A stretch of DNA of 23,165 nt from IMG/VR virus record IMGVR_UViG_2585427789_000019. The stretch is one strand, 5' to 3'. The position numbers were made by a program, and so were the translations under genes. The notes under the pieces are model-generated. The model was not told the origin of the DNA. It was given only the letters and a program-made list of their open reading frames with translations, and ran no database searches. Below are positions 3,389 to 20,444 of this stretch, one piece after another; position 1 is the first letter of the stretch, and each line of letters opens with the position of its first letter. The DNA is from a virus. Its lineage: Duplodnaviria; Heunggongvirae; Uroviricota; Caudoviricetes.

Positions 3389-3750
3389 GCAGCCTCCCGA
3401 CGGGCAAGAATCCTTGAGCCGAACGCCATCAACTCTCCACGATCAACGGTCGTAAAGTGGCAGTGTGTACGGGGGTATGGGTGCCAGATAATGAGCATCG
3501 AGCCTTTATTATTTCCACTGACGTGTTTCCCGGTGAGTGGGTTAATAAATGCCAGTCGTCCTGCCGTGATGAATCTGACCTCACTGGCGGTTTGTATCGC
3601 TTCATGAAACCATCCGACAGATGTGTCAGCAGGTAATAACATTACACATCCCACACTGCTGAATTTGTTTTCAGTGGCTGCCTTTTTCACAAAAGGGGAA
3701 ATATTGCTGTATGGTGGATTCAACCAGACATAACCAGAGGCATATCCCAT
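3385..3750 (-). CDS. Phage Dam-type N6-adenine DNA methyltransferase, N-terminally truncated remnant
   Basis: WLNPPYS (N6-adenine MTase motif IV) lies at residues 9 to 15, followed by VMLLPADTSVGWFHEAI and VRFITAGRLAFINP as in the phage Dam family; the expected N-terminal SAM-binding region is missing and there is no Shine-Dalgarno before the ATG at 3750. Confidence 0.55.
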   Translation of the reverse strand: MGYASGYVWLNPPYSNISPFVKKAATENKFSSVGCVMLLPADTSVGWFHEAIQTASEVRFITAGRLAFINPLTGKHVSGNNKGSMLIIWHPYPRTHCHFTTVDRGELMAFGSRILARREAA

Positions 3751-3997
3751 TGCTTACTGGTTGGTTACCAACTTGTACCAGAACATGCGGGCCAATGCGC
3801 TGACTGACGCGGAATTACGGCGCAAGGCTGCCGATGAACTGTCCTGTATGACCGCGCGAATTAACCGTGGTGAGGCGATACCTGAACCAGTAAAACAACT
3901 TCCTGTCATGGGCGGTAGACCTCTAAATCGTGCACAGGCTCTGGCGAAGATCGCAGAAATCAAAGCTAAGTTCGGACTGAAAGGATCAAGTGTATGA
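3751..3997 (+). pseudogene. peaD: Replication protein P, C-terminal fragment
   Basis: Frame reads ...LVTNLYQNMRANALTDAELRRKAADELSCMTARINRGEAIPEPVKQLPVMGGRPLNRAQALAKIAEIKAKFGLKGSSV, matching the C-terminus of lambda P as I recall it; no N-terminal part and no ATG start; stop overlaps the ren ATG as in lambda. Confidence 0.75.
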
Positions 3998-4296
3998 CGG
4001 GCAAAGAGGCAATTATTCATTACCTGGGGACGCATAAGAGCTTCTGTGCACAGGACGTTGCCGCGGTAACAGGTGCAACCGTAACCAGCATAAATCAGGC
4101 TGCGGCTAAAATGGCGCGGGCAGGAATCCTGGTCGTTGATGGTAAGGTCTGGCGAACGGTGTATTACCGGTTCGCTACCAGAGAAGAACGGGAAGGAAAG
4201 GTGAGCACGAATCTGATTTTTAAGGAGTGTCGCCAGAGTGCCGCGATGAAACGGGTACTGAGGGTATATAAAAGAACATCAATGGGAACACAATGA
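3994..4296 (+). CDS. renD: Ren-like protein
   Basis: MTGKEAIIHYLGTHKSFCAQDVAAVTGATVTSINQAAAKMARAGILVVDGKVWRTVYYRFATREEREGK... matches lambda Ren; ATG at 3994 overlaps the P stop (ATGA). Confidence 0.8.
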   Translation: MTGKEAIIHYLGTHKSFCAQDVAAVTGATVTSINQAAAKMARAGILVVDGKVWRTVYYRFATREEREGKVSTNLIFKECRQSAAMKRVLRVYKRTSMGTQ

Positions 4297-4363
4297 TGAA
4301 ACAGGTGAGTTGAGTTCAAACTGTAGTACAATTCTCTCCCGTTTGAACAGGAAAGAATATGCT

Positions 4364-4696
4364 ATGAACCCTTATATTTATCTTGGTGGTGCAATACTTG
4401 CAGAGGTCATTGGTACAACCTTAATGAAGTTTTCAGAAGGTTTTACACGGTTATGGCCATCTGTTGGTACAATTATTTGTTATTGTGCATCATTCTGGTT
4501 ATTAGCTCAGACGCTGGCTTATATTCCTACAGGGATTGCTTATGGTATCTGGTCAGGAGTCGGTATTGTCCTGATTAGCTTACTGTCATGGGGATTTTTC
4601 GGCCAACGGCTGGACCTGCCAGCCATTATAGGCATGATGTTGATTTGTGCCGGTGTGTTGGTTATTAATTTATTGTCACGAAGCACACCACATTAA
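4364..4696 (+). CDS. emrE: Small multidrug resistance (SMR) efflux transporter EmrE
   Basis: 110 aa from the ATG at 4364 (aggaaag Shine-Dalgarno upstream): MNPYIYLGGAILAEVIGTTLMKFSEGFTRLWPSVGTIICYCASFWLLAQTLAYIPTGIAYGIWSGVGIVLISLLSWGFFGQRLDLPAIIGMMLICAGVLVINLLSRSTPH, four TM helices including the conserved membrane Glu. Confidence 0.9.
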   Translation: MNPYIYLGGAILAEVIGTTLMKFSEGFTRLWPSVGTIICYCASFWLLAQTLAYIPTGIAYGIWSGVGIVLISLLSWGFFGQRLDLPAIIGMMLICAGVLVINLLSRSTPH

Positions 4697-4726
4697 AATA
4701 ATTTGTTTCTAAACGACTAAAATATG

Positions 4727-4769
4727 GAGGCTCTTATATTTATATGAGCCTCGTTTTATGCTTTTTGTT
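4727..4769 (+). terminator. Intrinsic terminator downstream of emrE
   Basis: Stem gaggctc (4728..4734) / gagcctc (4746..4752) with an AT loop, followed by gttttatgctttttgtt. Confidence 0.55.
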
Positions 4770-4950
4770 AATGTCTTTATTTTTTATGTATTCTTTTGTG
4801 CTTTCAAGATTATGGCGTAAGAAAATTGCAATACGATTATTGTTGTATATTCAAGATAATGTGACCTTAATTGTCTTTTTAAATAAAAATTAAACAAAAA
4901 TTATATCCCACCACTAAGGTTTATAAAAGCATACGTTAGCAGGTGTCACC

Positions 4951-6477
4951 ATGAAAAAAGCCATAGCATATATGCGATTTTCATCACCAGGTCAGATGTC
5001 TGGCGACTCATTAAACCGACAGAGAAGACTTATTGCTGAATGATTAAAGGTAAATAGTGATTATTATCTTGATACCATAACATATGAAGATTTAGGATTA
5101 AGTGCATTCAAAGGAAAGCATGCACAATCAGGAGCTTTTTCGGAATTTTTAGATGCTATAGAGCATGGTTATATATTGCCAGGAACTACATTGTTAGTTG
5201 AAAGTCTGGACAGACTTTCAAGAGAAAAAGTCGGTGAAGCGATTGAACGTCTGAAATTGATTTTGAATCACAGTATTGATGTTATAACTCTTTGCGACAA
5301 TACAGTCTATAATATTGACTCTTTGAATGAGCCATATTCATTAATAAAAGCCATACTTATAGCACAAAGGGCAAATGAAGAAAGCGAGATAAAGTCAAGT
5401 CGGGTTAAATTATCATGGAAGAAAAAACGGCAGGATGCACTGGAATCAGGTACGATTATGACGGCGTCTTGTCCGAGATGGCTCTCCTTAGATGACAAAA
5501 GAACGGCTTTTGTTCCAGACCCCGACAGGGTGAAAACTATTGAGCTAATTTTTAAACTCAGGATGGAAAGGCGCTCATTGAATGCAATAGCCAAGTATTT
5601 AAATGATCATGCTGTAAAGAATTTCTCAGGAAAAGAAAGTGCATGGGGACCTTCTGTAATTGAAAAATTATTAGCGAATAAAGCTCTGATAGGTATATGC
5701 GTACCTTCATATCGTGCAAGAGGGAAAGGGATAAGTGAAATCGCTGGCTATTATCCCAGAGTCATATCAGATGATTTGTTTTACGCTGTACAGGAAATTC
5801 GGTTGGCACCTTTTGGTATTAGCAATAGTAGCAAGAATCCTATGCTAATAAATCTACTTCGAACAGTTATGAAGTGTGAGGCTTGTGGTAATACCATGAT
5901 TGTTCATGCGGTATCTGGAAGTTTGCATGGCTATTATGTTTGTCCGATGAGAAGATTACATCGATGTGACAGGCCATCAATAAAAAGAGATTTGGTTGAT
6001 TATAATATCATTAATGAATTGCTTTTTAATTGTAGCAAAATTCAACCAGTTGAAAACAAGAAAGATGCTAATGAAACTTTAGAGTTAAAAATTATTGAGC
6101 TTCAGATGAAAATTAATAATTTAATCGTTGCATTGTCTGTCGCGCCTGAAGTTACCGCTATAGCAGAGAAAATAAGACTATTAGATAAGGAATTACGAAG
6201 GGCTTCGGTATCATTGAAAACTTTGAAGAGTAAAGGTGTAAATTCATTCAGTGATTTTTATGCTATTGACTTAACCAGTAAAAATGGACGAGAGTTATGC
6301 CGTACACTTGCCTATAAAACATTCGAAAAAATCATAATTAATACGGATAATAAAACCTGTGATATCTATTTTATGAATGGCATTGTTTTTAAACACTATC
6401 CTTTAATGAAAGTAATATCCGCCCAGCAGGCGATAAGTGCTCTCAAATATATGGTTGATGGTGAGATTTATTTCTAA
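4951..6477 (+). pseudogene. ybcK: Serine recombinase YbcK-like, interrupted by an in-frame TGA at codon 31 (5041..5043)
   Basis: ATG at 4951 with aggtg Shine-Dalgarno gives MKKAIAYMRFSSPGQMSGDSLNRQRRLIAE, then TGA, then the same frame continues LKVNSDYYLDTITYEDLGLSAFKGKHAQSGAFSEFLDAIEHGYILPGTTLLVESLDRLSREK... to 6477 (508 codons if read through). The N-terminal piece carries the resolvase-type catalytic serine motif (YMRFSS..Q). Confidence 0.75.
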
Positions 6478-6858
6478 ATAATGATCTCGGATTTTAAGTT
6501 ATGCTATGGTGATAAAGTGCAAGACAGAATTAATTATCTTTGACGAAACTTAATGGGTAATTACTTTGTTTGCTCCCACAAGCGAGTTTTGTACGGCTGT
6601 ATTGGGGTAGTAAATGAGCTATACAATCTTAATCATTTGTTAGGTGAGAACTCTTGGTCGCAGATTCAAATACTGAAAATACGTGACAAATTATTATGAG
6701 CAAAATGGTGTATGTCACGTATTTTGAATGGTAGGTTAAAAAATAACACCGACTTTCGTAGGTATTACTAATAATAAAGCAGAGTTTTTAGATAGTATCA
6801 ATGTGCTTTGTGTATATTGTGGCAAATAATTGGGTTGGGGGTACAATTGTGATTGCTT

Positions 6859-6888
6859 TTGCATGAACATTGCGCCTTTATGCATAAT
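6859..6888 (+). promoter_or_regulatory. Candidate sigma70 promoter for ybcL
   Basis: TTGCAT (6859..6864), 18-bp spacer, CATAAT (6883..6888) preceded by TG, about 55 bp upstream of the ybcL ATG; pattern match only. Confidence 0.3.
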
Positions 6889-6941
6889 GAGATAAAGGAA
6901 TATCAAATAAAATAACGATAGGTCATAACAAAGAGGTTTTT

Positions 6942-7493
6942 ATGAAAACACTTATCGTTTCAACTGTATTGGCATTCATAACATTTTCTGCGCAGGCTGC
7001 AGCATTTCAGGTCACTAGTAATGAAATAAAAACAGGAGAGCAACTTACAACGTCTCATGTCTTTTCTGGATTTGGGTGTGAAGGTGGTAATACATCGCCC
7101 TCATTAACCTGGTCTGGTGTTCCTGAAGGTACCAAAAGCTTTGCCGTAACTGTATATGATCCAGATGCACCTACAGGCAGTGGTTGGTGGCATTGGACTG
7201 TTGTTAATATTCCAGCAACAGTAACATATTTGCCCGTTGATGCAGGGAGACGTGATGGAACAAAACTGCCGACTGGTGCTGTTCAAGGCCGAAATGATTT
7301 TGGCTATGCTGGGTTTGGTGGCGCATGTCCTCCTAAAGGAGATAAACCACATCATTACCAGTTTAAAGTATGGGCTCTAAAAACTGAAAAGATTCCTGTA
7401 GATTCTAACTCCAGCGGAGCGTTAGTTGGTTATATGCTTAATGCTAATAAAATCGCAACCGCTGAGATAACACCAGTTTATGAGATAAAGTAG
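6942..7493 (+). CDS. ybcL: Secreted PEBP/RKIP-family (UPF0098) protein YbcL
   Basis: 183 aa with an N-terminal signal peptide (MKTLIVSTVLAFITFSAQA) and PEBP-like motifs (DPDAP, HHY); aagagg Shine-Dalgarno before the ATG at 6942. Confidence 0.9.
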   Translation: MKTLIVSTVLAFITFSAQAAAFQVTSNEIKTGEQLTTSHVFSGFGCEGGNTSPSLTWSGVPEGTKSFAVTVYDPDAPTGSGWWHWTVVNIPATVTYLPVDAGRRDGTKLPTGAVQGRNDFGYAGFGGACPPKGDKPHHYQFKVWALKTEKIPVDSNSSGALVGYMLNANKIATAEITPVYEIK

Positions 7494-7502
7494 GGTGAGA
7501 GT

Positions 7503-8300
7503 ATGCTGGCAAGAGGTAAGACTAACTTAAAGATCGAAGAAATACGGATGCATAAACATCATGAGATTCATAGGGTTAAGCCTCTTATGCCAGCTTTGTG
7601 TCGTATCCGTCAGGGAAAGAAAGTTATCAATTGGGAGACGCATACTTTAACTGTTGATAATAATCAAATAATATTATTTCCTTGTGGTTATGAATTTTAT
7701 ATTGAGAATTATCCTGAAGCAGGGCTTTATCTTGCAGAAATGCTTTACTTACCCATTGATTTAATTGAGAGTTTCCAAAAACTTTATACGGTAACTGATC
7801 AAATACGTAACAAAACAAGTTTCTTTTTACCTCAGAATCCTGAGTTAATATATTGTTGGGAGCAACTAAAAACATCTGTTTCCCGAGGCTTCTCAACTAA
7901 AATTCAGGAGCACTTAGCAATGGGCGTTCTACTTTCGTTAGGAGTGAATCATGTTAATCATTTACTTTTATCATATAGTAAACAATCATTGATAAGTCGT
8001 TGTTATAACCTGCTGCTATCCGAACCCGGCACAAAATGGACAGCAAACAAGGTTGCTCGATATCTCTACATTTCTGTTTCTACATTACATCGCCGTCTAG
8101 CAAGCGAGGGGGTAAGTTTCCAAAGTATACTGGACGATGTGAGGTTAAATAATGCGTTGTCTGCTATACAAACGACGGTAAAACCTATAAGCGAGATTGC
8201 CAGAGAAAATGGTTATAAGTGTCCTTCTCGTTTTACTGAAAGATTTCATAATCGTTTTAATATAACACCAAGAGAGATAAGAAAAGCTTCCAGAGAGTAA
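7503..8300 (+). CDS. ybcM: AraC/XylS-family transcriptional regulator YbcM
   Basis: 265 aa with a C-terminal AraC-type HTH ([45 protein letters not shown]...[31 protein letters not shown]). Confidence 0.85.
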
Positions 8301-8416
8301 AAGTGTTTTAAGAAGGAGCAATTCTATCGATTTTGATTTTGGGAAATCAACACGGCATAATTATGTCACCGGAGCCTGAACAACTCCGGTGACTTCTGCG
8401 CTAAACGGGGACGTTT

Positions 8417-8518
8417 ATGCGCACATACAATCCAAACTCTCTTCTCCCTTCACAGATGCAGAAATGCACCTGCAATTCTTTGCATCTAGCGTTTGACCTC
8501 TGCGGAGGTGAAGCGTGA
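8417..8518 (+). CDS. ylcH: Small nin-region protein YlcH (33 aa)
   Basis: ATG at 8417; [33 protein letters not shown]; stop overlaps the ybcN GTG start. Recognised from DLP12 gene order as I recall it. Confidence 0.55.
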
Positions 8519-8970
8519 ACCTCTCACAAGACGGCATCAAATTACATCGCGGCAACTTCACCGCTATCGGTCGGCAGATCCAGCCTTATCTGGAGGAGGG
8601 CAAATGCTTTCGCATGGTGCTTAAACCGTGGCGTGAGAAACGCAGTCTTTCCCAGAATGCACTCAGCCACATGTGGTACAGCGAAATCAGTGAATACCTC
8701 ATCAGCAGGGGTAAAACGTTCGCCACTCCAGCTTGGGTAAAAGATGCTCTCAAACACACATATCTCGGTTATGAAACCAAAGACCTGGTTGATGTCGTAA
8801 CCGGTGATATCACCACTATCCAGTCGTTACGCCATACCTCCGACCTTGATACCGGAGAGATGTATGTCTTCCTGTGTAAGGTTGAAGCCTGGGCGATGAA
8901 TATTGGCTGCCACCTGACTATTCCGCAGAGCTGCGAGTTCCAGCTGCTGCGTGATAAGCAGGAGGCGTAA
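8515..8970 (+). CDS. ybcN: YbcN (nin-region protein, reported DNA base-flipping activity)
   Basis: 151 aa from the GTG at 8515 ([61 protein letters not shown]...), in the expected position before ninE. Confidence 0.8.
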
Positions 8971-9140
8971 TGGCTACACCGCTTATTCGTGTCATGAACG
9001 GACACATCTACAAAGTACCAAATCGTCGTAAGCGTAAGCCTGAGCTGAAACCATCCGAAATACCAACACTGCTCGGATATACCGCCAGCCTGGTTGATAA
9101 AAAATGGTTGCGACTGGCAGCAAGGAGGAATCATGGCTGA
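8970..9140 (+). CDS. ninE: NinE
   Basis: 56 aa, [56 protein letters not shown]; ATG overlaps the ybcN stop. Confidence 0.85.
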   Translation: MATPLIRVMNGHIYKVPNRRKRKPELKPSEIPTLLGYTASLVDKKWLRLAARRNHG

Positions 9141-9423
9141 TTTGAGAAAAGCAGCGCGTGGTCGGGAATGCCAGGTAAGAATCCCTGGCGTATGTAATGG
9201 CAATCCTGAAACGTCTGTACTGGCACATATCCGGCTGGCTGGATTGTGCGGTACCGGTATCAAACCGCCAGACCTGATTGCCACCATTGCATGTTCTGCC
9301 TGTCACGACGAGATCGACCGTCGCACGCATTTTGTTGACGCTGGATATGCAAAAGAATGCGCGCTGGAAGGTATGGCGAGAACGCAGGTTATCTGGCTGA
9401 AAGAGGGGGTAATTAAGGCGTGA
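9133..9423 (+). CDS. ybcO: YbcO (nin-region putative nuclease, Cys/His-rich)
   Basis: 96 aa from the ATG at 9133 with ggagg Shine-Dalgarno: [67 protein letters not shown]... Confidence 0.8.
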
Positions 9424-9782
9424 ATACCTACAATATCACATTACCCTGGCCGCCGAGCAATAATCGCTATTACCGCCATAATCGCGGGCGCACGCACATC
9501 AGCGCAGAGGGGCAGGCATACCGCGAAAACGTCGCCCGAATCATTAAAAACGCAATGCTGGATATCGGCCTGGCTATGCCTGTGAAAATCCGCATTGAGT
9601 GTCACATGCCGGATCGCCGTCGCCGTGACCTGGATAATCTACAAAAGGCCGCTTTTGACGCACTCACCAAAGCAGGTTTCTGGCTGGATGATGCTCAGGT
9701 CGTTGATTACCGCGTTGTGAAGATGCCGGTTGTCAAAGGTGGAAAGCTGGAACTGACCATCACTGAACAGGGAGATGAATGA
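9420..9782 (+). CDS. rusA: Holliday-junction resolvase RusA
   Basis: 120 aa from the GTG at 9420 ([97 protein letters not shown]...) with RusA catalytic Asp residues. Confidence 0.9.
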
Positions 9783-9919
9783 TGTTTGAGTTTTATATGG
9801 CAGAACTTCTTCGCCACCGCTGGATGCGCCTGCGCTTATATCGTTTCCCCGGTTCTGTTTTGACCGATTACCGAATACTGAAGAATTACGCCAAAACACT
9901 GACAGGAGCAGGAGTATGA
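9779..9919 (+). CDS. ylcG: Small nin-region protein YlcG (46 aa)
   Basis: [46 protein letters not shown]; ATG overlaps the rusA stop. Confidence 0.55.
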
Positions 9920-10004
9920 AGTCAGAGATAACAATCAACTAATACTGTTTTGTTGATTTTTGCTTGTAATTGGCGTTCTGGTCTGAGTTTTGTGGAGTAA
10001 GTTG

Positions 10005-10388
10005 ATGCGTGATATTCAGATGGTTCTTGAGCGTTGGGGAGCGTGGGCGGCTAATAATCATGAAGATGTGACCTGGTCGTCCATTGCCGCCGGTTTTAAG
10101 GGATTAATTCCTTCAAAAGTAAAATCTCGCCCACAATGTTGTGACGATGACGCGATGATCATTTGCGGGTGCATGGCCCGTCTGAAAAAGAACAACAGCG
10201 ATTTGCATGATTTATTAGTAGATTATTATGTAGTCGGTATGACATTCATGTCACTGGCAGGTAAGCATTGCTGCTCTGATGGTTATATCGGGAAAAGGTT
10301 ACAGAAGGCTGAGGGCATAATTGAAGGGATGTTAATGGCATTAGATATCCGGTTAGAGATGGATATCGTTGTTAATAACTCTAATTAA
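10005..10388 (+). CDS. quuD: Q-like late-gene antiterminator
   Basis: 127 aa from the ATG at 10005 (ggag Shine-Dalgarno at 9994): [62 protein letters not shown]..., Cys-rich zinc-binding region typical of Q proteins, positioned after the nin region. Confidence 0.85.
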
Positions 10389-10421
10389 TATGCCAATTGT
10401 TTACTAAAAATTATTAAAAAT

Positions 10422-10450
10422 GGGGCGTTGAGACGCCCCCAAAAATAAAG
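10422..10450 (-). terminator. Intrinsic terminator for the minus strand (likely nmpC)
   Basis: Perfect 7-bp GC stem ggggcgt/acgcccc (10422..10439, loop tgag); on the minus strand it is followed by AUUUUUAAUAAUUUUU. Confidence 0.55.
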
Positions 10451-10527
10451 GGTAATATATAACAGAAGGTTTATATAGTTAGAAGCAAGGTTGTGCTTCT
10501 AAAGGAAGTGGCTTGAGGGAGCCACTT

Positions 10528-10567
10528 ATATGTTGGGGAGGCAAAGCCTCCCGCAACATATCTTTTT
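10528..10567 (+). terminator. Intrinsic terminator for the plus strand (candidate tR'-like terminator downstream of quuD)
   Basis: Long hairpin atatgttggggaggc-aaa-gcctcccgcaacatat (10528..10561) followed by cttttt. Confidence 0.55.
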
Positions 10568-10577
10568 CGTAATCAGA

Positions 10578-11660
10578 TTAGAACTGATACACCAGACCTA
10601 CAGCGACGATGTCGTCGGTATCAATACCAGCTGTTTTGGTAAACTTACTATCGTCAATTAAGTTGATTTTGTAATCAACAAAAGTGGACATGTTTTTATT
10701 AAAGTAGTAAGTAGCACCGACATCGACATACTTGACTAAGTCTCGGTCACCATGAACACCAAGGTCTTTACCTTTTGACTGAAGGTAAGCAACAGATGGT
10801 CGCAGACCGAAGTCAAACTGATATTGTGCTACTGCTTCAAAGTTTTGTGCTTTGTTTGCAATATGGTTATTACCAAAAACGGTCATATTCTGAGTTTCAG
10901 AATATGTGGTAGCCAGATAGATATTGTTCGCATCATATTTCAGGCCTGCAGCCCATACTTCCGCATTTTTGCCGGAGGCATTGAATTTGCTCTTACCATA
11001 GGCGACCTGACCGTCAGTGCGATCTGATTTAGCATAGGTTGCACCCACGCCGAATCCTTCATACTCATAAGTAGTGGAGAAACCGAAACCATCACCATTG
11101 GCTTCAGTTACGTCAGTGCGGTCATTTTTACCCTGATACTGAGCAGCAAAGTTCAGGCCATCGACCAGACCAAAGAAGTCGTTGTTACGATAGGTTGCAA
11201 CACCAGTGGTGCGACCAGTCATGAACACATCTGTTTGGGTCCAGGTATCGCCACCGAATTCTGGCAGAACGTCAGTCCACGCACCGATGTCGTATGCTAC
11301 ACCGTAGTTACGGCCGTAATCGATTGAGCCGTAGTCACCGAATTTCAGGCCTGCAAATGCAAGACGGGTTTTGTCTTTGGAGGAACCTTGAGATTCAGCG
11401 CGGTTGCCTTTGAATTCATATTCCCACTGACCGAAACCAGTCAGTTGATCGTTGATTTGGGTTTCACCTTTGAAGCCAAGACGGGCATAAGTAGTATCAC
11501 CATCATCTGCATCGTTAGAGGAAAAGTAGTGCTTGGCATTAACTTTCCCGTACAGATCCAGCTTGTTACTGTCTTTATTATAAATTTCAGCTGCCTGAGC
11601 AGACATCGCCATCAGTACTGATGCAGCTACAGCAGAAATTGCCACTGTTAATTTTTTCAT
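10578..11660 (-). CDS. nmpC: OmpC/OmpF-family outer-membrane porin (NmpC-type), apparently intact
   Basis: 360 aa with signal peptide ([23 protein letters not shown]), porin beta-strand pattern and C-terminal ...VGLVYQF; uninterrupted reading frame. Confidence 0.9.
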
Positions 11661-12248
11661 CGTGAGCCCTTTTTTTTGAACTATTATTAAAAAATGATGT
11701 CACTGCGCGATAAATATTCATCTAATCAATGTGATTATTTCAAGATGTAAGTTTTAGTTTCTCATTTAATTTGTGAAGTAGATCTCTATTTTTATCTGAA
11801 CTTTTTCTATCGAAACCTATTTATGGCTCTTATTTGAACAAAAATAAACCTATTAGCTAATTTATATTAATGGCTGTTATTTATGGGGGTTCTATAATTC
11901 AGTGGTTTAATTTAAATCAACCAAAAATAACGCCGGAAATTATTTATTGGTTATTTGTTGAGGTTTTCTTATATATTTGTGGTGGTGTTTTGAACACTCG
12001 GTAGCATTCTCATAAATATCATTCAGTGGTTTACGTACGTAAAAAATTGGTTATGCTGTTAAGAGTGGTTACTTCGTCACACAGCTTAAACCCGCCGTCG
12101 AGCTGGTTTTTCCATTTTTTGAGTCTCGATATTAGCTGATAACTCAATACCTGAGTTATTCACTGACTCCGAGTCTGTTACGTTTCTGCTTTTTTGCGAT
12201 ACGTTGTATTCCCTCAATTTACACCCGCTTTGTCTGCGAGGTGGGGTT

Positions 12249-12464
12249 ATGAAATCCATGGATAAGTTAACAACGGGTGTCGCCTATGGCACCTCAGCAG
12301 GTAGTGCCGGTTACTGGTTTTTACAGCTGCTCGATAAAGTCACGCCCTCACAGTGGGCAGCAATAGGTGTGCTGGGTAGCCTGGTATTTGGCCTGCTGAC
12401 GTACCTGACAAACCTTTATTTCAAGATTAAAGAAGATAAGCGCAAGGCTGCGAGAGGTGAATAA
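12249..12464 (+). CDS. essD: Holin (phage 21 S-type pinholin)
   Basis: 71 aa from the ATG at 12249: [71 protein letters not shown]; two TM segments, immediately before the endolysin. Confidence 0.85.
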
Positions 12465-12961
12465 TGCCTCCATCATTACGAAAAGCCGTTGCTGCTGCTA
12501 TTGGTGGCGGAGCAATTGCTATAGCATCAGTGTTAATCACTGGCCCAAGTGGTAACGATGGTCTGGAAGGTGTCAGCTACATACCATACAAAGATATTGT
12601 TGGTGTATGGACTGTATGTCACGGGCATACAGGAAAAGACATCATGCTCGGTAAAACGTATACCAAAGCAGAATGCAAAGCCCTCCTGAATAAAGACCTT
12701 GCCACGGTCGCCAGACAAATTAACCCGTACATAAAAGTTGATATACCGGAAACAACGCGCGGCGCTCTTTACTCGTTCGTTTACAACGTGGGCGCTGGCA
12801 ATTTCAGAACATCGACGCTTCTTCGCAAAATAAACCAGGGCGATATCAAAGGCGCATGTGATCAGCTACGTCGCTGGACATATGCTGGCGGTAAGCAATG
12901 GAAAGGTCTCATGACTCGTCGTGAGATTGAGCGTGAAATCTGTTTGTGGGGTCAGCAATGA
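12464..12961 (+). CDS. rrrD: SAR endolysin (T4-lysozyme-type, phage 21 R-like)
   Basis: 165 aa; N-terminal Gly/Ala-rich signal-anchor-release segment ([20 protein letters not shown]) followed by a lysozyme catalytic region. Confidence 0.9.
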
Positions 12962-13419
12962 ACAGAGTAACCGCGATTATCTCCGCTCTGGTTATCTGCA
13001 TCATCGTCTGCCTGTCATGGGCTGTTAATCATTACCGTGATAACGCCATTACCTACAAAGCCCAGCGCGACAAAAATGCCAGAGAACTGAAGCTGGCGAA
13101 CGCGGCAATTACTGACATGCAGATGCGCCAGCGTGATGTTGCTGCACTGGATGAAAAATACACGAAGGAGTTAGCTAATGCGAAAGCTGAAAATGATGCT
13201 CTGCGTGATGATGTTGCCGCTGGTCGTCGTCGGTTGCACATCAAAGCAGTCTGTCAGTCAGTGCGTGAAGCCACCACCGCCTCCGGCGTGGATAATGCAG
13301 CCTCCCCCCGACTGGCAGACACCGCTGAACGGGATTATTTCACCCTCAGAGAGAGGCTGATCACTATGCAAAAACAACTGGAAGGAACCCAGAAGTATAT
13401 TAATGAGCAGTGCAGATAG
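12958..13419 (+). CDS. rzpD: Spanin, inner-membrane subunit (Rz)
   Basis: 153 aa from the ATG at 12958 (overlaps the rrrD stop); N-terminal TM helix then a coiled-coil periplasmic domain. Confidence 0.85.
13178..13360 (+). CDS. rzoD: Spanin, outer-membrane lipoprotein subunit (Rz1), embedded in rzpD in the +1 frame
   Basis: 60 aa, [24 protein letters not shown]... lipobox LVVVGC and proline-rich C-terminus ([15 protein letters not shown]). Confidence 0.8.
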
Positions 13420-13450
13420 AGCTGCCCATATCGATGGGCAACTCATGCAA

Positions 13451-13744
13451 TTATTGTGAGCAATACACACGCGCTTCCAGCGGAGTATAAATGCCTAAAG
13501 TAATAAAACCGAGCAATCCATTTACGAATGTTTGCTGGGTTTCTGTTTTAACAACATTTTCTGCGCCGCCACAAATTTTGGCTGCATCAACAGTTTTCTC
13601 CTGTCCAATTCCCGAAACGAAGAAGTGATGGGTGATGGTTTCCTTTGGTGTTACTGCTGTCGGTTTGTTTCCAACAGTAAACGTCTGTTGAGCACATCCT
13701 GTAATAAGCATTGCCAGAGCGGCAGAAAACAACATTTTTTTCAT
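13451..13744 (-). CDS. borD: Bor lipoprotein (serum-resistance family)
   Basis: 97 aa from the ATG at 13744: MKKMLFSAALAMLITGCAQQTFTVGNKPTAVTPKETITHHFFVSGIGQEKTVDAAKICGGAENVVKTETQQTFVNGLLGFITLGIYTPLEARVYCSQ; lipobox ITGC. Confidence 0.9.
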   Translation of the reverse strand: MKKMLFSAALAMLITGCAQQTFTVGNKPTAVTPKETITHHFFVSGIGQEKTVDAAKICGGAENVVKTETQQTFVNGLLGFITLGIYTPLEARVYCSQ

Positions 13745-14105
13745 CTTATTATCCTGCATTGTTAAAAACGGCAGAATCCTATGTGACAAAAATTAAACGA
13801 TAGTTAAATGGATTGATGAAAATTAAAACTATATAGGTGGATGCTCAGCCTATTGGAGGAGGGGGGGGCACTCAGAATCCTGTGGAATGAAATAAACCGC
13901 TCTTTCTGTCCATTACCCTTTTAGCTGCGCTGTATCGTCGCCGTATTCCCGCATTAACCATGACCGTAGCCCGACGGGGAATTCCTTCTGCGTGAGTGTG
14001 CGGGAATAATCAAAAACGATGCACACCGGGTTTTACTGTGCTGACAGACGCAGGGTTACCCTCATAGTCGCTTTTCCGGTGCGATGGTGGAAGAAACCGG
14101 GATGT

Positions 14106-14300
14106 TTATTCATCATCACTCTGGATTGATGTATATGCTCTCTTTTCTGACGTTAGTCTCCGACGGCAGGCTTCAATGACCCAGGCTGAGAAATTCCCAG
14201 ACCCTTTTTGCTCAAGAGCGATGTTAATTTGTTCAATCATTTGGTTAGGAAAGCGGATGTTGCGGGTTGTTGTTCTGCGGGTTCTGTTCTTAGTTGACAT
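14106..14300 (-). CDS. ylcI: Small ribbon-helix-helix-like protein (YlcI-like, 64 aa)
   Basis: MSTKNRTRRTTTRNIRFPNQMIEQINIALEQKGSGNFSAWVIEACRRRLTSEKRAYTSIQSDDE; basic N-terminus and RHH-like pattern. Gene symbol assigned from position and size as I recall them. Confidence 0.55.
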   Translation of the reverse strand: MSTKNRTRRTTTRNIRFPNQMIEQINIALEQKGSGNFSAWVIEACRRRLTSEKRAYTSIQSDDE

Positions 14301-14464
14301 GAGGTTGCCCCGTATTCAGTGTCGCTGATTTGTATTGTCTGAAGTTGTTTTTACGTTAAGTTGATGCAGATCAATTAATACGATACCTGCGTCATAATTG
14401 ATTATTTGACGTGGTTTGATGGCGTAGATGCACGTTGTGACATGTAGATGATAATTATTATCAT

Positions 14465-14690
14465 TTTGCGGGTCCTTTCCGGCGATCCGACAGGTTACGG
14501 GGCGGCGACCTCGCGGGTTTTCGCTATTTATGAAAATTTTCCGGTTTAAGGCATTTCCGTTCTTCTTCGTCGTAACTTAATGTTTTTATTTAAAATACCC
14601 CCTGAAAAGAAAGGAAACGACAGGTGCTGAAAACGAGCTTTTGGGCCTCTGTCGTTTCCTTTCTCTGTTTTTGGCCGTGGAATGAACAAT
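14465..14690. other. Lambda-type cohesive end site (cosQ-cosN-cosB)
   Basis: cgatccgacaggttacg followed by GGGCGGCGACCT (cosN, 14499..14510) and cgcgggttttcgctatttatgaaaattttccggtttaagg..., near-identical to the lambda right-end/left-end junction as I recall it, running into the Nu1 start. Confidence 0.75.
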
Positions 14691-15264
14691 GGAAGTCAAC
14701 AAAAAGCAGCTGGCTGACATTTTCGGTGCGAGTATCCGTACCATTCAGAACTGGCAGGAACAGGGAATGCCCGTTCTGCGAGGCGGTGGCAAGGGTAATG
14801 AGGTGCTTTATGACTCTGCCGCCGTTATAAGATGGTATGCCGAAAGGGATGCTGAAATTGAGAACGAAAAGCTGCGCCGGGAAGTTGAAGAACTGCGGCA
14901 GGCCAGCGAGACAGATCTCCAGCCAGGGACTATTGAGTACGAACGCCATCGACTTACGCGTGCGCAGGCCGACGCACAGGAGCTGAAAAATGCCAGAGAC
15001 TCCGCTGAAGTGGTGGAAACCGCATTCTGTACTTTCGTGCTGTCGCGGATCGCAGGTGAAATTGCCAGTATTCTCGACGGGATCCCCCTGTCGGTGCAGC
15101 GGCGTTTTCCGGAACTGGAAAACCGACATGTTGATTTCCTGAAACGGGATATCATCAAAGCCATGAACAAAGCAGCCGCGCTGGATGAACTGATACCCGA
15201 ACACGGCACTGGTCGGCGTGCAGGTGGACTCGGAGCAGTTCGGCAGCCAGCAGGTGAGCCGTAA
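14689..15264 (+). CDS. nohD: Terminase small subunit (Nu1 homologue) with a non-native C-terminal tail from a deletion junction
   Basis: [71 protein letters not shown]... matches lambda Nu1 through ...[14 protein letters not shown], then diverges ([21 protein letters not shown]) as the frame runs into J-derived DNA. Confidence 0.8.
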
Positions 15265-18040
15265 TTATCATCTTCGCGGGCGCATTCTGCAGGTGCCGTC
15301 GAACTATAACCCGCAGACGCGGCAATACAGCGGTATCTGGGACGGAACGTTTAAGCCGGCATACAGCAACAACCCGGCCTGGTGTCTGTGGGATATGCTG
15401 ACCCACCCGCGCTACGGCATGGGGAAACGTCTTGGTGCGGCGGATGTGGATAAATGGGCGCTGTATGTCATCGGCCAGTACTGCGACCAGTCAGTGCCGG
15501 ACGGTTTTGGCGGCACGGAGCCGCGCATCACCTGTAATGCCTACCTGACCACGCAGCGTAAGGCGTGGGATGTGCTCAGTGATTTCTGCTCGGCGATGCG
15601 CTGTATGCCGGTATGGAACGGGCAGACGCTGACGTTCGTGCAGGACCGACCATCAGATAAGGTGTGGACCTATAACCGCAGTAATGTGGTGATGCCGGAT
15701 GATGGCGCGCCGTTCCGCTACAGCTTCAGCGCCCTGAAGGACCGCCATAATGCCGTTGAGGTGAACTGGATTGACCCGAATAACGGCTGGGAGACGGCGA
15801 CAGAGCTTGTTGAAGATACGCAGGCCATTCTCCGTTACGGTCGTAACGTCACGAAGATGGATGCCTTTGGCTGTACCAGCCGGGGGCAGGCACACCGCGC
15901 CGGGCTGTGGCTGATTAAAACGGAGCTGCTGGAAACGCAGACCGTGGACTTCAGCGTGGGTGCCGAAGGGCTTCGCCATGTACCGGGCGATGTCATTGAA
16001 ATCTGCGATGATGACTATGCCGGTATCCGCACCGGCGGGCGCGTGCTGGCGGTAAACAGCCAGACCCGGACGCTGACGCTCGACCGTGAAATCACGCTGC
16101 CATCTTCCGGCACCACGCTGATAAGCCTGGTTGACGGGCAGGGGAGTCCGGTCAGCGTGGAGGTTCAGTCCGTCACCGACGGCGTGAAGGTGAAAGTGAG
16201 CCGTGTTCCTGACGGCGTTGCTGAATACAGCGTATGGGGGCTGAAGCTGCCGACGTTGCGCCAGCGCCTGTTCCGCTGCGTGAGTATCCGTGAGAACGAC
16301 GACGGCACGTATGCCATCACCGCCGTGCAGCATGTACCGGAAAAAGAGGCCATCGTGGATAACGGGGCGCACTTTGACGGCGACCAGAGCGGCACGGTAA
16401 ATGGTGTCACGCCGCCAGCGGTGCAGCACCTGACCGCAGAAGTCACCGCAGACAGCGGGGAATACCAGGTGCTGGCCCGCTGGGATACGCCGAAGGTGGT
16501 GAAGGGCGTGAGCTTCCTGCTTCGCCTGACCGTGGCAGCGGATGACGGCCGTGAGCGACTGGTCAGCACGGCCCGGACGACGGAAACCACTTACCGCTTC
16601 ACACAACTGGCTCTGGGGAACTACAGGCTGACAGTCCGGGCAGTAAATGCGTGGGGGCAGCAGGGCGAGCCGGCGTCGGTATCGTTCCGGATTGCCGCAC
16701 CGGCAGCGCCGTCGCAGATTGAGCTGACACCGGGGTATTTTCAGATAACCGCCACGCCGCATCTTGCGGTTTATGATCCGACGGTACAGTTTGAGTTCTG
16801 GTTCTCGGAAAAGCGGATTGCGGATATCAGGCAGGTTGAAACCACAGCACGCTATCTTGGCACGGCGCTGTACTGGATAGCCGCCAGTATCAATATCAAA
16901 CCGGGCCATGATTATTATTTTTACATCCGCAGTGTGAACACCGTTGGCAAATCGGCATTCGTGGAGGCTGTTGGCCAGCCGAGTGATGATGCATCCGGCT
17001 ATCTGAATTTTTTCAAAGGAGAGATAGGGAAAACCCATCTGGCTCAGGAGTTGTGGACGCAGATTGATAACGGTCAGCTTGCGCCTGACCTGGCGGAAAT
17101 CAGAACGTCCATCACGGATGTCAGTAATGAAATCACGCAGACCGTCAATAAGAAACTGGAAGACCAGAGTGCGGCAATCCAGCAGATACAGAAGGTTCAG
17201 GTTGATACAAATAATAACCTGAACAGCATGTGGGCTGTGAAGCTGCAGCAGATGCAGGACGGACGCCTTTATATCGCGGGTATTGGTGCCGGTATTGAGA
17301 ATACCCCTGACGGTATGCAGAGTCAGGTGCTGCTGGCGGCGGACAGGATTGCGATGATTAATCCTGCGAATGGCAACACAAAGCCGATGTTTGTTGGTCA
17401 GGGCGATCAGATATTCATGAACGAAGTGTTCCTGAAATATCTGACGGCTCCCACCATTACCAGCGGCGGTAATCCTCCGGCATTTTCCCTGACACCGGAC
17501 GGGCGGCTGACGGCGAAAAATGCCGATATTAGCGGTAACGTGAATGCGAACTCCGGGACGCTCAACAACGTCACGATTAACGAGAACTGCCGGGTTCTGG
17601 GAAAACTGTCCGCGAACCAGATTGAAGGCGATCTCGTTAAAACAGTGGGCAAAGCTTTCCCCCGGGACTCCCGTGCACCGGAGCGGTGGCCATCAGGGAC
17701 CATTACCGTCAGGGTTTATGACGATCAGCCGTTTGACCGGCAAATTGTTATTCCGGCGGTGGCATTCAGTGGCGCTAAACATGAGCAAGATCATACTGAT
17801 ATCTACTCCTCATGCCGTCTGATAGTACGAAAAAACGGTGCTGAAATTTATAACCGAACGGCTCTGGATAATACGCTGATATATACGGGTGTTATTGATA
17901 TGCCTGCAGGCAGTGGTGTAATGACACTGGAATTTTCTGTATCGGCATGGCTGGTAAATGGCTGGTATCCCACAGCAAGTATCAGCGATTTGCTGGTTGT
18001 GGTGATGAAGAAAGCCACTGCAGGCATCATGATTAGCTGA
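15218..18040 (+). CDS. J: Tail-tip host-specificity protein J, N-terminally truncated fragment (about 940 codons); probably a non-functional remnant
   Basis: ...[108 protein letters not shown]... matches internal lambda J sequence as I recall it; no native N-terminus or Shine-Dalgarno, and the frame opens at the nohD junction. Confidence 0.85.
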
Positions 18041-18084: not shown

Positions 18085-18098
18085 TTTGTGGAGTGAAT

Positions 18099-20444
18099 AT
18101 GGCAGTACAGATTTCAGGTGTGCTGAAAGATGGTGCGGGAAAACCAATACAGAACTGCACTATTCAACTGAAGGCAAAGCGTAACAGCACCACGGTACTG
18201 GTGAACACGGTGGCCTCTGAAAATCCGGATGAAGCCGGGCGTTACAGCATGGATGTTGAGCATGGCCAGTACAGCGTCACCCTGCTGGTTGAAGGTTTTC
18301 CGCCTTCACATGCCGGAACCATTACCGTCTATGAAGGTTCCAGACCAGGTACGCTGAATGATTTTCTCGGTGCCATGACGGAAGATGATGTCATGCCGGA
18401 GGCATTGCGTCGTTTTGAGGCAATGGTGGAAGAAGCGGCACGCAACGCCGAAGCCGCCTCTCAGAGCGCAGCGGCGGCAAAGAAATCCGAAACTGCAGCG
18501 GCATCATCGAAGAACGCGGCGAAAACCTCAGAAACGAATGCAGCTAACAGCGCACAGGCGGCAGCGTCCTCGCAGACTGCATCGGCAAACTCCGCGACAG
18601 CAGCCAAAAAATCAGAAACCAACGCGAAAAACAGCGAGACAGCCGCAAAGACGAGCGAAACCAACGCAAAGTCCAGCCAGACGGCAGCGAAAACCAGCGA
18701 AACGAATGCCAAAGCCAGTGAAACTGCGGCGAAAAATAGCCAGAATGCAGCAGCCGAAAGCGAGAGCGCGGCAGCCGGTTCTGCGACTGCAGCAGCTGGA
18801 TCAGCAACTGCTGCGGCTAACAGCCAGAAAGCAGCGAAGACGAGCGAAACTAACGCAAAGTCCAGCCAGACGGCAGCGAAGACCAGCGAAACAAATGCCA
18901 AAGCCAGCGAAACTGCGGCGAAAAGCAGTCAGGATGCAGCAGCCGAAAGCGAGAGTGCTGCAGCTGGTTCTGCAAGTGCGGCGGCTGCTTCTGCCACTGC
19001 ATCAGCAAACAGTCAAAAAGCTGCAAAAACCAGTGAAACCAATGCAAAGACAAGCGAGACTGCAGCGGCGAACTCGGCGCAAGCATCGGCAGCAAGCCAG
19101 ACAGCAGCTAAAGCAAGTGAGGATGCAGCCAGAGAGTATGCAAGCCAGGCAGCAGAGCCGTATAAATATGTCTTACAGCCACTGCCTGATGTGTGGATAC
19201 CGTTTAACGATTCACTGGATATGCTTGCTGGCTTTTCGCCTGGTTATAAGCAAATAACCGTAGGTGATGATGTTATTAAAATGCCATCCGATAAGGTTGT
19301 TAGCTTCAAACGCGCATCAGGTGCAACATACATTAATAAATCAGGTGTATTAACCGTTGCTGAAGTTGACGAACCGCGATTTGAACGAGAAGGTTTGCTG
19401 ATTGAAGGACAGAGAACAAACTATTTCAGAAATTCAAATACACCAGAAGCATGGAATAACACGGGTAGTGTGTCTGTTGAGTCGTTCGACAGTGATAAGG
19501 GGTTTAACTATGGAAGGATAACTGTTATTAATGAAAATCCGACAGCACAAGGATATCAGGCAATTGCTGTAAACACGAATGATGCTTACACCTGCCCGGC
19601 AGGTTCTTATACGACGATATCGTGTCTGACGAAAAGTGATAATTCCCGGTGTCGTGCAAGGTTCGGAAAAATGTCTGATAATGGTGCGTTTGTTTTTCAT
19701 TCAGATGCAGTTCTGGATCCTGTTACGGGAAATGTTGTTCATGGAAATAATGTGACGGTGACGGCAGAAAGAGTCGGTGAATGGTGGTTGTTTACCGCCA
19801 CTCTTTTTGCAGATGCGGAAATGATAATCAGCTCAAGATTTGAAATCCTGGCGATGCCTGGAATCAGTATTATCCCCAATGGCTCTACGTTAGATATTGC
19901 GATGCCTCAGGCGGAGATTGGGTCGTACAGGACGTCATTTATCATTACTGAAGGGGCTCCTGGCACTCGCTCCAGCGACATGGTGACAATACCTGTAAGA
20001 AACAATATTCACCGATTACCATTCAGTGCTCTTGTTGAAGTTAATAAAAACTGGGATATCCCTCCCAGCAAATCACCATTAATCTTTAATGTTAAAGATT
20101 ATCAGGAAAATGGTCTGTTCACGCATGGATTCCGTGGTAATAATTTCTCTGATGCCGGTTCTCCTTTTATTTCTATGGGAGGGTGTAATAAATATGTGGC
20201 AACAACCCAGAGGAAAATCATTTCAGGCTTCCGTTGTGGCGCTGATGGAGATGTTCAGGCCGTATGTAATGGTGAATTATCTGTTGCGGCAAAAACAACA
20301 TGGACTTCAATTGTTCCACGGGCAGTATTGCGAATTGGAGGGCAGGGCACTAATGGGGAGTATCATCTTTTTGGTCATATCCGTAATCTGCGTATCTGGC
20401 ATAAAGAATTAACTGATGCGCAAATGGGGGAGAGTATTAAATGA
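18099..20444 (+). CDS. stf: Side tail fibre protein (lambda Stf-like N-terminus, Ala/Ser-rich repeat shaft, non-lambda C-terminal domain)
   Basis: ATG at 18099 with ggag Shine-Dalgarno; MAVQISGVLKDGAGKPIQNCTIQLKAKRNSTTVLVNTVASENPDEAGRYSMDVEHGQYSVTLLVEGFPPSHAGTITVYEGSRPGTLNDFLGAMTEDD... matches the Stf N-terminus; followed by AAKTSETNAK-type repeats. Confidence 0.85.
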   Translation: MAVQISGVLKDGAGKPIQNCTIQLKAKRNSTTVLVNTVASENPDEAGRYSMDVEHGQYSVTLLVEGFPPSHAGTITVYEGSRPGTLNDFLGAMTEDDVMPEALRRFEAMVEEAARNAEAASQSAAAAKKSETAAASSKNAAKTSETNAANSAQAAASSQTASANSATAAKKSETNAKNSETAAKTSETNAKSSQTAAKTSETNAKASETAAKNSQNAAAESESAAAGSATAAAGSATAAANSQKAAKTSETNAKSSQTAAKTSETNAKASETAAKSSQDAAAESESAAAGSASAAAASATASANSQKAAKTSETNAKTSETAAANSAQASAASQTAAKASEDAAREYASQAAEPYKYVLQPLPDVWIPFNDSLDMLAGFSPGYKQITVGDDVIKMPSDKVVSFKRASGATYINKSGVLTVAEVDEPRFEREGLLIEGQRTNYFRNSNTPEAWNNTGSVSVESFDSDKGFNYGRITVINENPTAQGYQAIAVNTNDAYTCPAGSYTTISCLTKSDNSRCRARFGKMSDNGAFVFHSDAVLDPVTGNVVHGNNVTVTAERVGEWWLFTATLFADAEMIISSRFEILAMPGISIIPNGSTLDIAMPQAEIGSYRTSFIITEGAPGTRSSDMVTIPVRNNIHRLPFSALVEVNKNWDIPPSKSPLIFNVKDYQENGLFTHGFRGNNFSDAGSPFISMGGCNKYVATTQRKIISGFRCGADGDVQAVCNGELSVAAKTTWTSIVPRAVLRIGGQGTNGEYHLFGHIRNLRIWHKELTDAQMGESIK
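18648..19026 (+). repeat. Imperfect 189-bp tandem duplication (63 codons x 2) inside stf, itself built from 21-bp Ala/Ser/Thr-rich sub-repeats
   Basis: Units beginning aagacgagcgaaac at 18648 and 18837 are near-identical for the first 120 bp or so (KTSETNAKSSQTAAKTSETNAKASETAAK.S...AAAESESAAAGSA...). Confidence 0.8.

Follow-up and report, generated by a model that had tools for sequence, protein, structure and literature searches.

The cos site of phage lambda, one of the closest known counterparts of the locus analyzed here, is a composite of named subsites. Its cosN consists of the cohesive end and 2 bp on either side (Murialdo & Feiss 2022, PMC9026076), and its cosB contains three R sites. 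R3 spans bp 50-65, with NMR contacts at bp 55-63 and critical positions at bp 56, 58, and 59, and R2 and R1 have a 16-bp sequence in common (PMC9026076, PMC4669245); among these, R3 is the most critical (PMC9026076). A conserved 7-bp site, cosQ, plays a role in termination (Feiss et al. 2015, PMC4669245). Packaging by lambda terminase begins at cosN-cosB and proceeds rightward, and a downstream cosQ-cosN is required for its completion (PMC4669245).

Sites of this type are also found in defective prophages, and the cos of DLP12, like noh-associated cos generally, is an already known feature. In Escherichia coli K-12, DLP12 has a 3.35-kb, 98%-identical region spanning cos in common with lambda, and recombinants between the two are about 100-fold commoner than those that lambda forms with Qin or Rac; of 19 such lambda x DLP12 junctions, 10 adjoin cos, and recombinants remain viable when their nu1 comes from DLP12 (De Paepe et al., PMC3945230). 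A "DLP12 cos junction" has served as a recombination site (Poteete et al., PMC545071), and the accepted view is that the K-12 DLP12 cos is a terminase-cut recombination hotspot (PMC3945230). In O157:H7 Sakai, the defective prophage Sp4 is packaged by the terminase of Sp14, the two having an identical cos (PMC2669165).

We analyzed a 23,165-nucleotide stretch of DNA (IMG/VR record IMGVR_UViG_2585427789_000019), hereafter the window. Going by collinearity and gene order, the locus is the cryptic prophage DLP12 at argU, in the version present in E. coli B. From 1379 to 23165, the sequence matches the prophage linked to argU in E. coli AST19 at 99.99% identity and runs collinear with the DLP12 of K-12 MG1655, and the genes follow one another in the DLP12 order (intD ... 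emrE-ybcK-ybcLMN-ninE-rusA-quuD-nmpC-essD-rrrD-rzpD-bor-ylcI-noh ... appY-ompT). The cos-Nu1-J segment is 100% identical in REL606, B, ATCC 11303, ATCC 8739, NCTC10537, and about 30 other complete genomes. BL21, BL21(DE3), C41/C43, and T7Express keep an identical cos and truncated noh, with homology stopping at window position 15363, a break that presumably represents the ompT-region deletion of that lineage. Because the BL21 family keeps cos and noh, DE3 lysogens have this orphan site in addition to the cos and nu1 in their lambda DE3 prophage. The DLP12 cos locus is also present, at 99.9-100% identity, in the RefSeq genome NZ_CP029371, labeled "strain C (cow's milk)", a strain that we take to differ from classical E. 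coli C. The latter is said to be without lambda cosN (Feiss et al. 2015, PMC4669245).

Several other features of this copy of DLP12 can be recorded here. The prophage porin gene nmpC (10578-11660, minus strand; ompC in RefSeq) is intact in the window and split by IS5 in K-12. The genes ybcV and ybcW are absent, about 290 bp (13799-14088) replacing about 1.28 kb of K-12. The stf gene (18093-20444) contains an internal direct repeat (18630-19067) composed of 249-bp copies that are offset by 189 bp and 84% identical; its 783-codon frame is open in the window and in REL606 and is annotated as a pseudogene in AST19. Finally, the recombinase gene ybcK (5176-6477) is a 433-codon open reading frame in the window, compared with 508 codons in K-12; the AST19 annotation lists it as a pseudogene carrying an internal stop.

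Window positions 14470-14688 form a complete lambda-type cos (cosQ, cosN, and cosB with R3-I1-R2-R1), which is followed from 14689 by a Nu1 homologue. We performed the base-level alignment that the initial annotation had called for, using as reference the circularized lambda junction (NC_001416, 48092-48502 joined to 1-699). Window 14089-15197 follows this reference without rearrangement and differs from it by 32 mismatches and a single 1-bp gap; the subsites cosQ, cosN, R2, and R1 are unchanged. A chance resemblance to lambda cos is ruled out by this colinear alignment of 1.1 kb at 97% identity. Over 14465-14690, there are eight substitutions and a 1-bp deletion (A48471G, T48486C, G54A, A73G, T102C, G134A, bp 138 deleted, T145G, and T176G in lambda numbering), which amounts to about 96% identity and bears out the near-identity to lambda that had originally been noted.

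As for the packaging-termination subsite, cosQ (GGGTCCT) lies at 14470-14476 on the plus strand, with the same sequence and the same distance to cosN as in lambda; we take its lambda equivalent to be 48473-48479, which agrees with the alignment. The 16-bp cosN (14498-14513) is identical to lambda 48501-48502 plus 1-14 at 16 of 16 bp, and is made up of the 12-bp cohesive-end sequence with two flanking bp on each side. This cohesive-end sequence, GGGCGGCGACCT, is found once in the whole window, at 14500-14511 on the plus strand (0.03 chance matches expected). The initial annotation had thus been right about its presence, and only its coordinates, given as 14499..14510, lay one base too far left. 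The cosN nicks are predicted at 14499/14500 on the top strand and at 14511/14512 on the bottom strand.

The first element of cosB, the small-terminase-subunit binding site R3 (14549-14564, plus strand), corresponds to lambda bp 50-65 and matches it at 15 of 16 positions, reading AGGCATTTCCGTTCTT in the window vs. AGGCGTTTCCGTTCTT in lambda. The difference, G54A at 14553, is the sole change within any named cos subsite. The contact segment of R3 (lambda bp 55-63, window 14554-14562) is unchanged, including the critical bp 56, 58, and 59, the spacing between cosN and R3 is as in lambda, and there is no indel from cosN to R2. The spacer between R3 and R2 (14565-14607), which holds the putative IHF site I1, contains two substitutions relative to lambda, A73G and T102C. 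Two IHF-consensus-like cores, with the same bases as in lambda, are found on the minus strand at 14573-14585 and 14578-14590; we infer the exact position of I1 from a WATCAANNNNTTR scan. Both substitutions fall outside these cores, A73G flanking them and T102C lying about 10 bp off, next to R2. The inverted R2 (14608-14623, minus strand) and R1 (14649-14664, plus strand) are identical at 16 of 16 bp to lambda 109-124 and 151-166, respectively, and the 1-bp deletion (lambda bp 138) falls between them. The start of the Nu1 homologue (14689) lies about 190 bp to the right of cosN and corresponds to lambda bp 191 shifted by the 1-bp deletion.

Are these differences compatible with a functional site? 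We compared the window with four laboratory-propagated temperate phages, PhiR42_1, PhiR34_1, Kati, and 2H10. The cos of PhiR42_1 (PV340562) is that of the window base for base, from lambda-equivalent position 48449 to the Nu1 start and including G54A, and the Nu1 residues 1-170 encoded in the window are those of PhiR42_1. PhiR42_1 is one of the PhiR ECOR-derived temperate phages, used in plaquing assays (PMC13190303, citing Brenes & Laub 2025); its GenBank record gives ECOR13 as propagation host. All the remaining differences from lambda are also present in at least one of PhiR34_1, Kati, and 2H10. Among the four viable phages compared, A73G is found in all, T102C in three, and the deletion of bp 138 in all, as well as in K-12 DLP12. 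Since the deletion is present in every phage compared, it is lambda that is the outlier at this position. To judge from these alignments, the functional bases of the orphan cos are those that live phages keep. We also looked for mutations in cosN and the R sites of the kind known to abolish cleavage, the finding that would have spoken against an intact site. None was found at positions known to matter, and cosQ is unchanged as well; because the one subsite change, G54A, occurs in a viable phage and is not at a critical position, the view that the site is intact stands. A helper terminase of lambda specificity could probably cut the cos in the window. For G54A, we infer the effect on R3 solely from its occurrence in PhiR42_1.

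The surroundings of this site are those of a heavily deleted prophage. A deletion of approximately 15.4 kb fuses nu1 codon 171 to J codon 212. Homology to lambda stops in nu1 at bp 699 (window 15197) and restarts at bp 16135, inside J, the two sides being joined at a TACC microhomology (15194-15197). The deletion takes out A through I and J codons 1-211, and the genes lost are those for the terminase large subunit (A), portal, protease/scaffold, decoration, capsid, head completion, tail shaft, and tail tip up to J codon 211. When 19 lambda morphogenesis proteins and O, P, Int, and Xis were used as tblastn queries against the window, matches were confined to parts of three proteins, namely residues 1-170 of Nu1, 212-1131 of J, and 144-233 of P. 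No terminase large subunit or head gene was found elsewhere in the window by tblastn of lambda proteins, and, together with the RefSeq annotation, this upholds the earlier observation that both are absent. The loss is best explained by one illegitimate deletion event at the TACC microhomology, which would have spanned nu1 codon 171 to J codon 212; with its left endpoint about 700 bp rightward of cosN, it left cos untouched.

On the right of cos, the truncated nohD (14689-15264, plus strand) encodes a 191-residue protein, in which residues 1-170 of Nu1 are followed by 21 unrelated residues that represent an out-of-frame reading of J. The Nu1 portion differs from lambda Nu1 by K48R, A75T, and L132I. 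The winged helix-turn-helix is unchanged except for K48R, with the recognition helix and the wing intact, and the last 11 residues of the large-terminase-subunit-binding domain are missing. TerS without its last 30 residues binds TerL poorly (PMC9026076). Directly downstream in the packaging direction lies J-prime (15194-18040, plus strand), a tail-tip remnant corresponding by tblastn to J residues 212-1131, which RefSeq calls a pseudogene without N terminus.

At the other end of the window, positions 1-1378 are the end of a copy of IS679 (IS66 family), 100% identical to other IS679 copies, inserted in intD. The 5' portion of intD occupies 1379-2251 on the minus strand, and collinearity with AST19 starts at 1379. 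An intact intD of 1164 bp would cover 1088-2251, and the insertion separates its final 291 bp. In the best-matching complete genomes, AST19 and REL606, intD is uninterrupted. The xis-like gene is a remnant according to the RefSeq annotation, also in strains without the IS679 insertion. Of the replication module there is a remnant of P, residues 144-233 (3737-3994, plus strand; tblastn and RefSeq annotation); neither gene O nor a replication origin was found in the window (tblastn with lambda O, and annotation), and no replication gene is annotated.

How common is such a site, and how has it been kept? Of 5426 complete E. coli genomes, 3982 contain a match that covers 80% or more of the 226-bp cos, with a median of two places per genome, mostly beside genes annotated as nohA or nohD. 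Compared with lambda, cos in the window has diverged by about 4%, the non-coding stretch on the left of cos by about 4.5%, and nu1 by 1.6%. The first two values give no sign of a special conservation of cos relative to its flanks. Identity to the DLP12 of K-12 is mosaic, being highest over 4083-10613 (99.0%), lower across the porin and lysis genes at 10653-13798 (91.1%), and intermediate in the cos-noh block at 14089-15197 (97.9%), and window 14300-15197 is 99.8% identical to PhiR42_1. This pattern suggests that the cos-noh block reflects recent or repeated exchange with passing live phages. The cos of K-12 DLP12 (16585-16835 of the K-12 locus compared) has C48472T adjoining cosQ and C53T in R3, the latter also present in 2H10. 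The two DLP12 lineages thus have different R3 alleles, each found in a live phage (G54A in PhiR42_1 and C53T in 2H10).

Taking these results together, we consider the orphan cos to be a passive relic of DLP12, intact in sequence and a plausible substrate for a helper terminase, and not the mobilizing site of a satellite, a reading to which we assign a probability of about 80%. Its directly observed basis is the sequence identity, the gene content with its lack of replication genes, the occurrence of only one cos, and an integrase gene that is broken. The steps after that can be outlined as expectations. With a phage of lambda specificity in the cell, terminase and IHF would bind R3-I1-R2-R1 and nick cosN, which would leave a terminase-bound right-hand end. 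Candidate cutting phages are lambda, 434-type phages, PhiR42_1-like phages, and N15, the last according to PMC4669245. Cleavage would be expected to have two consequences. One is a double-strand break that would boost recombination between phage and prophage, an outcome documented for K-12 DLP12. The other is rightward packaging into the truncated nohD, J-prime, stf, appY, ompT, envY, nfrAB, cus, and ent/fep; on the gene map, a first headful rightward from cos would reach about entF. Since there is no downstream cos, such packaging cannot terminate, and would at best yield rare particles with a single cohesive end. These would be similar to the docL particles of lambda, which derive from non-excised prophages and illustrate that packaging can start at cos and enter host DNA.

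The foremost alternative, which we hold to be unlikely, is that the site is dead, that is, an inert fossil no longer cut in vivo because of G54A or its chromosomal context. The substitution lies inside nominal R3 (bp 50-65), the R site that matters most (PMC9026076), and this counts against full certainty that the cos is functional. Yet, bp 54 falls outside the segment contacted by the small subunit (bp 55-63) and does not belong to the critical positions 56, 58, and 59 (PMC9026076), and the same R3 allele, within the same entire cos, is used by the plaque-forming PhiR42_1. In purified lambda particles from an induced lysogen, host coverage was "almost exclusively" lambda and about 25 kb on each side, and DLP12 goes unmentioned in that report (PMC7667829). 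If the host in question carried DLP12, this suggests that little stably encapsidated DNA starts at the DLP12 cos. Cleavage of a chromosomal cos may also be rare as a result of its context, e.g., bound nucleoid proteins or the absence of local amplification. The clustering at cos of recombinant junctions in K-12 (PMC3945230) argues for a site that is cut, though cutting of the phage's own cos could explain it.

Conversely, growth of a lambda-type phage might let the site drive one-directional transduction, lateral-like and on a biologically meaningful scale, of the right-hand flank with ompT, the cus operon, and the ent/fep genes, which we view as highly improbable. The orientation is suitable, since cos faces rightward into host DNA and a first headful would extend from the truncated nohD as far as about entF, and the docL particles offer a precedent. 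However, docL heads are rare and need nuclease trimming before tails join. Moreover, no cosQ-cosN lies downstream for proper termination, the template would not be amplified by in situ replication (O and the origin are absent), and no signal of this kind is reported in PMC7667829.

Less probable again is that the element is a satellite, with a superinfecting lambdoid helper packaging and transferring the whole of DLP12 via its cos. Such packaging in trans had been raised in the initial annotation, and the sequence of cos is indeed intact. Furthermore, O157 Sakai has defective lambdoid prophages whose cos makes them packageable by the terminase of another prophage (PMC2669165), and a 24-kb element would fit a lambda head as a dimer. 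The rest of the locus does not support the proposal. Two cos in the same orientation on one molecule would be needed, which requires excision and replication or multimerization. For excision, however, the locus offers only an intD disrupted by IS679 291 bp short of its 3' end and a remnant of the xis-like gene; for replication, it has a fragment of P and no O. Multimers, which need both processes, are therefore not expected. There is one matching cos place per genome in B-type strains with the identical junction, and no second cosQ-cosN within 50 kb downstream in REL606, where only chance-level partial matches were found. The element itself, at about 24-26 kb, is about half a lambda headful, lambda packaging roughly 38-51 kb. 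The RefSeq annotation names no genes for helper interference, packaging redirection (e.g., Rpp), or capsid remodeling. Among IMG/VR contigs, three contain the Nu1-J junction, and in the one that can be judged, the junction, hence cos, is well inside the contig, which looks like a predicted provirus and not a packaged end. On the strength of its gene content and single cos, then, DLP12 is not made a mobilizable satellite by this site.

Least credible of all, in our view, is that selection has kept the site as a decoy or interference module, cos and the truncated NohD titrating or poisoning the terminase of incoming lambda-type phages: cos and noh relics are present in 3982 of 5426 genomes, and NohD has an unchanged recognition helix and wing and has lost the last 11 residues of a large-subunit-binding domain whose shortening by 30 residues impairs TerL binding (PMC9026076), but lambda and many of its relatives plate well on E. 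coli B and K-12 strains with these loci, cos, with a substitution density of roughly 4%, shows no deficit of substitutions compared with the non-coding stretch on its left, a high prevalence is expected anyway from ubiquitous lambdoid prophages, and the nohD of K-12 is full length. Taken more broadly, the idea that cos and the truncated NohD are not neutral, whether as a terminase decoy or poison or as a start site preferentially loading ompT, cus, and ent/fep into helper capsids (the equivalent, for cos phages, of lateral transduction), has in our estimation only a slim chance of being right. If it were true, the common noh/cos relics would form a functional class, for which there is no positive support here.

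For the passive relic that we favor, the implications are mostly practical. The DLP12 cos is a textbook relic that has been used and discussed for decades, and the present finding mainly confirms annotation. Nevertheless, B-lineage laboratory strains such as REL606, BL21, and their relatives, as well as K-12, carry a cos that is putatively cleavable by lambda terminase. Recombination with lambda vectors or phages grown in them can create hybrids and rescue cos or nu1 mutants. In principle, such sites could also seed one-directional encapsidation of neighboring host DNA.

Comparison with named systems places the locus as follows. With the cos of lambda (NC_001416, 48473-48502 plus 1-190), it shares the order and orientation of all subsites, and the Nu1 gene follows in both. 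In contrast to that of lambda, the cos in the window is chromosomal and single copy, and the large-subunit gene A does not follow. A close relative is the cos/nohD of K-12 MG1655 (b0560 region), which is in the same prophage at the same argU site, with cos followed by noh as here. The two cos regions are 97.9% identical over 1.1 kb, with C53T in K-12 vs. G54A in the window. In K-12, however, a full-length nohD precedes an A-prime fragment (aaaD) and then tfaD, whereas in the window nu1 is fused to J-prime by a different deletion. The cos/nohA of the cryptic prophage Qin and other noh loci of E. coli are likewise orphan lambda-type cos sites beside a Nu1 homologue, and many genomes have noh loci that are 99-100% identical to the 226-bp cos of the window; these differ in chromosomal site and in deletion endpoints.

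The systems in which such sites do mobilize DNA resemble this locus in part. Like DLP12 in the window, Sp4 is a defective lambdoid prophage that lacks a working terminase and has kept its cos, but Sp4 excises, is amplified by neighboring replication, and is near phage size (PMC2669165), none of which applies here. The cos-type phage-inducible chromosomal islands of E. coli also have a lambda-like cosN and rely on a helper terminase (PMC6739421, PMC9026076). Those islands, however, have their own cosB, an Rpp that redirects the helper small subunit, an integrase, replication genes, and a capsid-tuned size, none of which, judging by gene content and annotation, is found in this copy of DLP12. 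Lambda docL and lateral transduction likewise involve one-way packaging from a chromosomal cos or pac into host DNA. Lateral transduction needs in situ replication and headful termination, whereas lambda terminase needs a second cos, and any docL-like products from the cos described here would be rare and defective.
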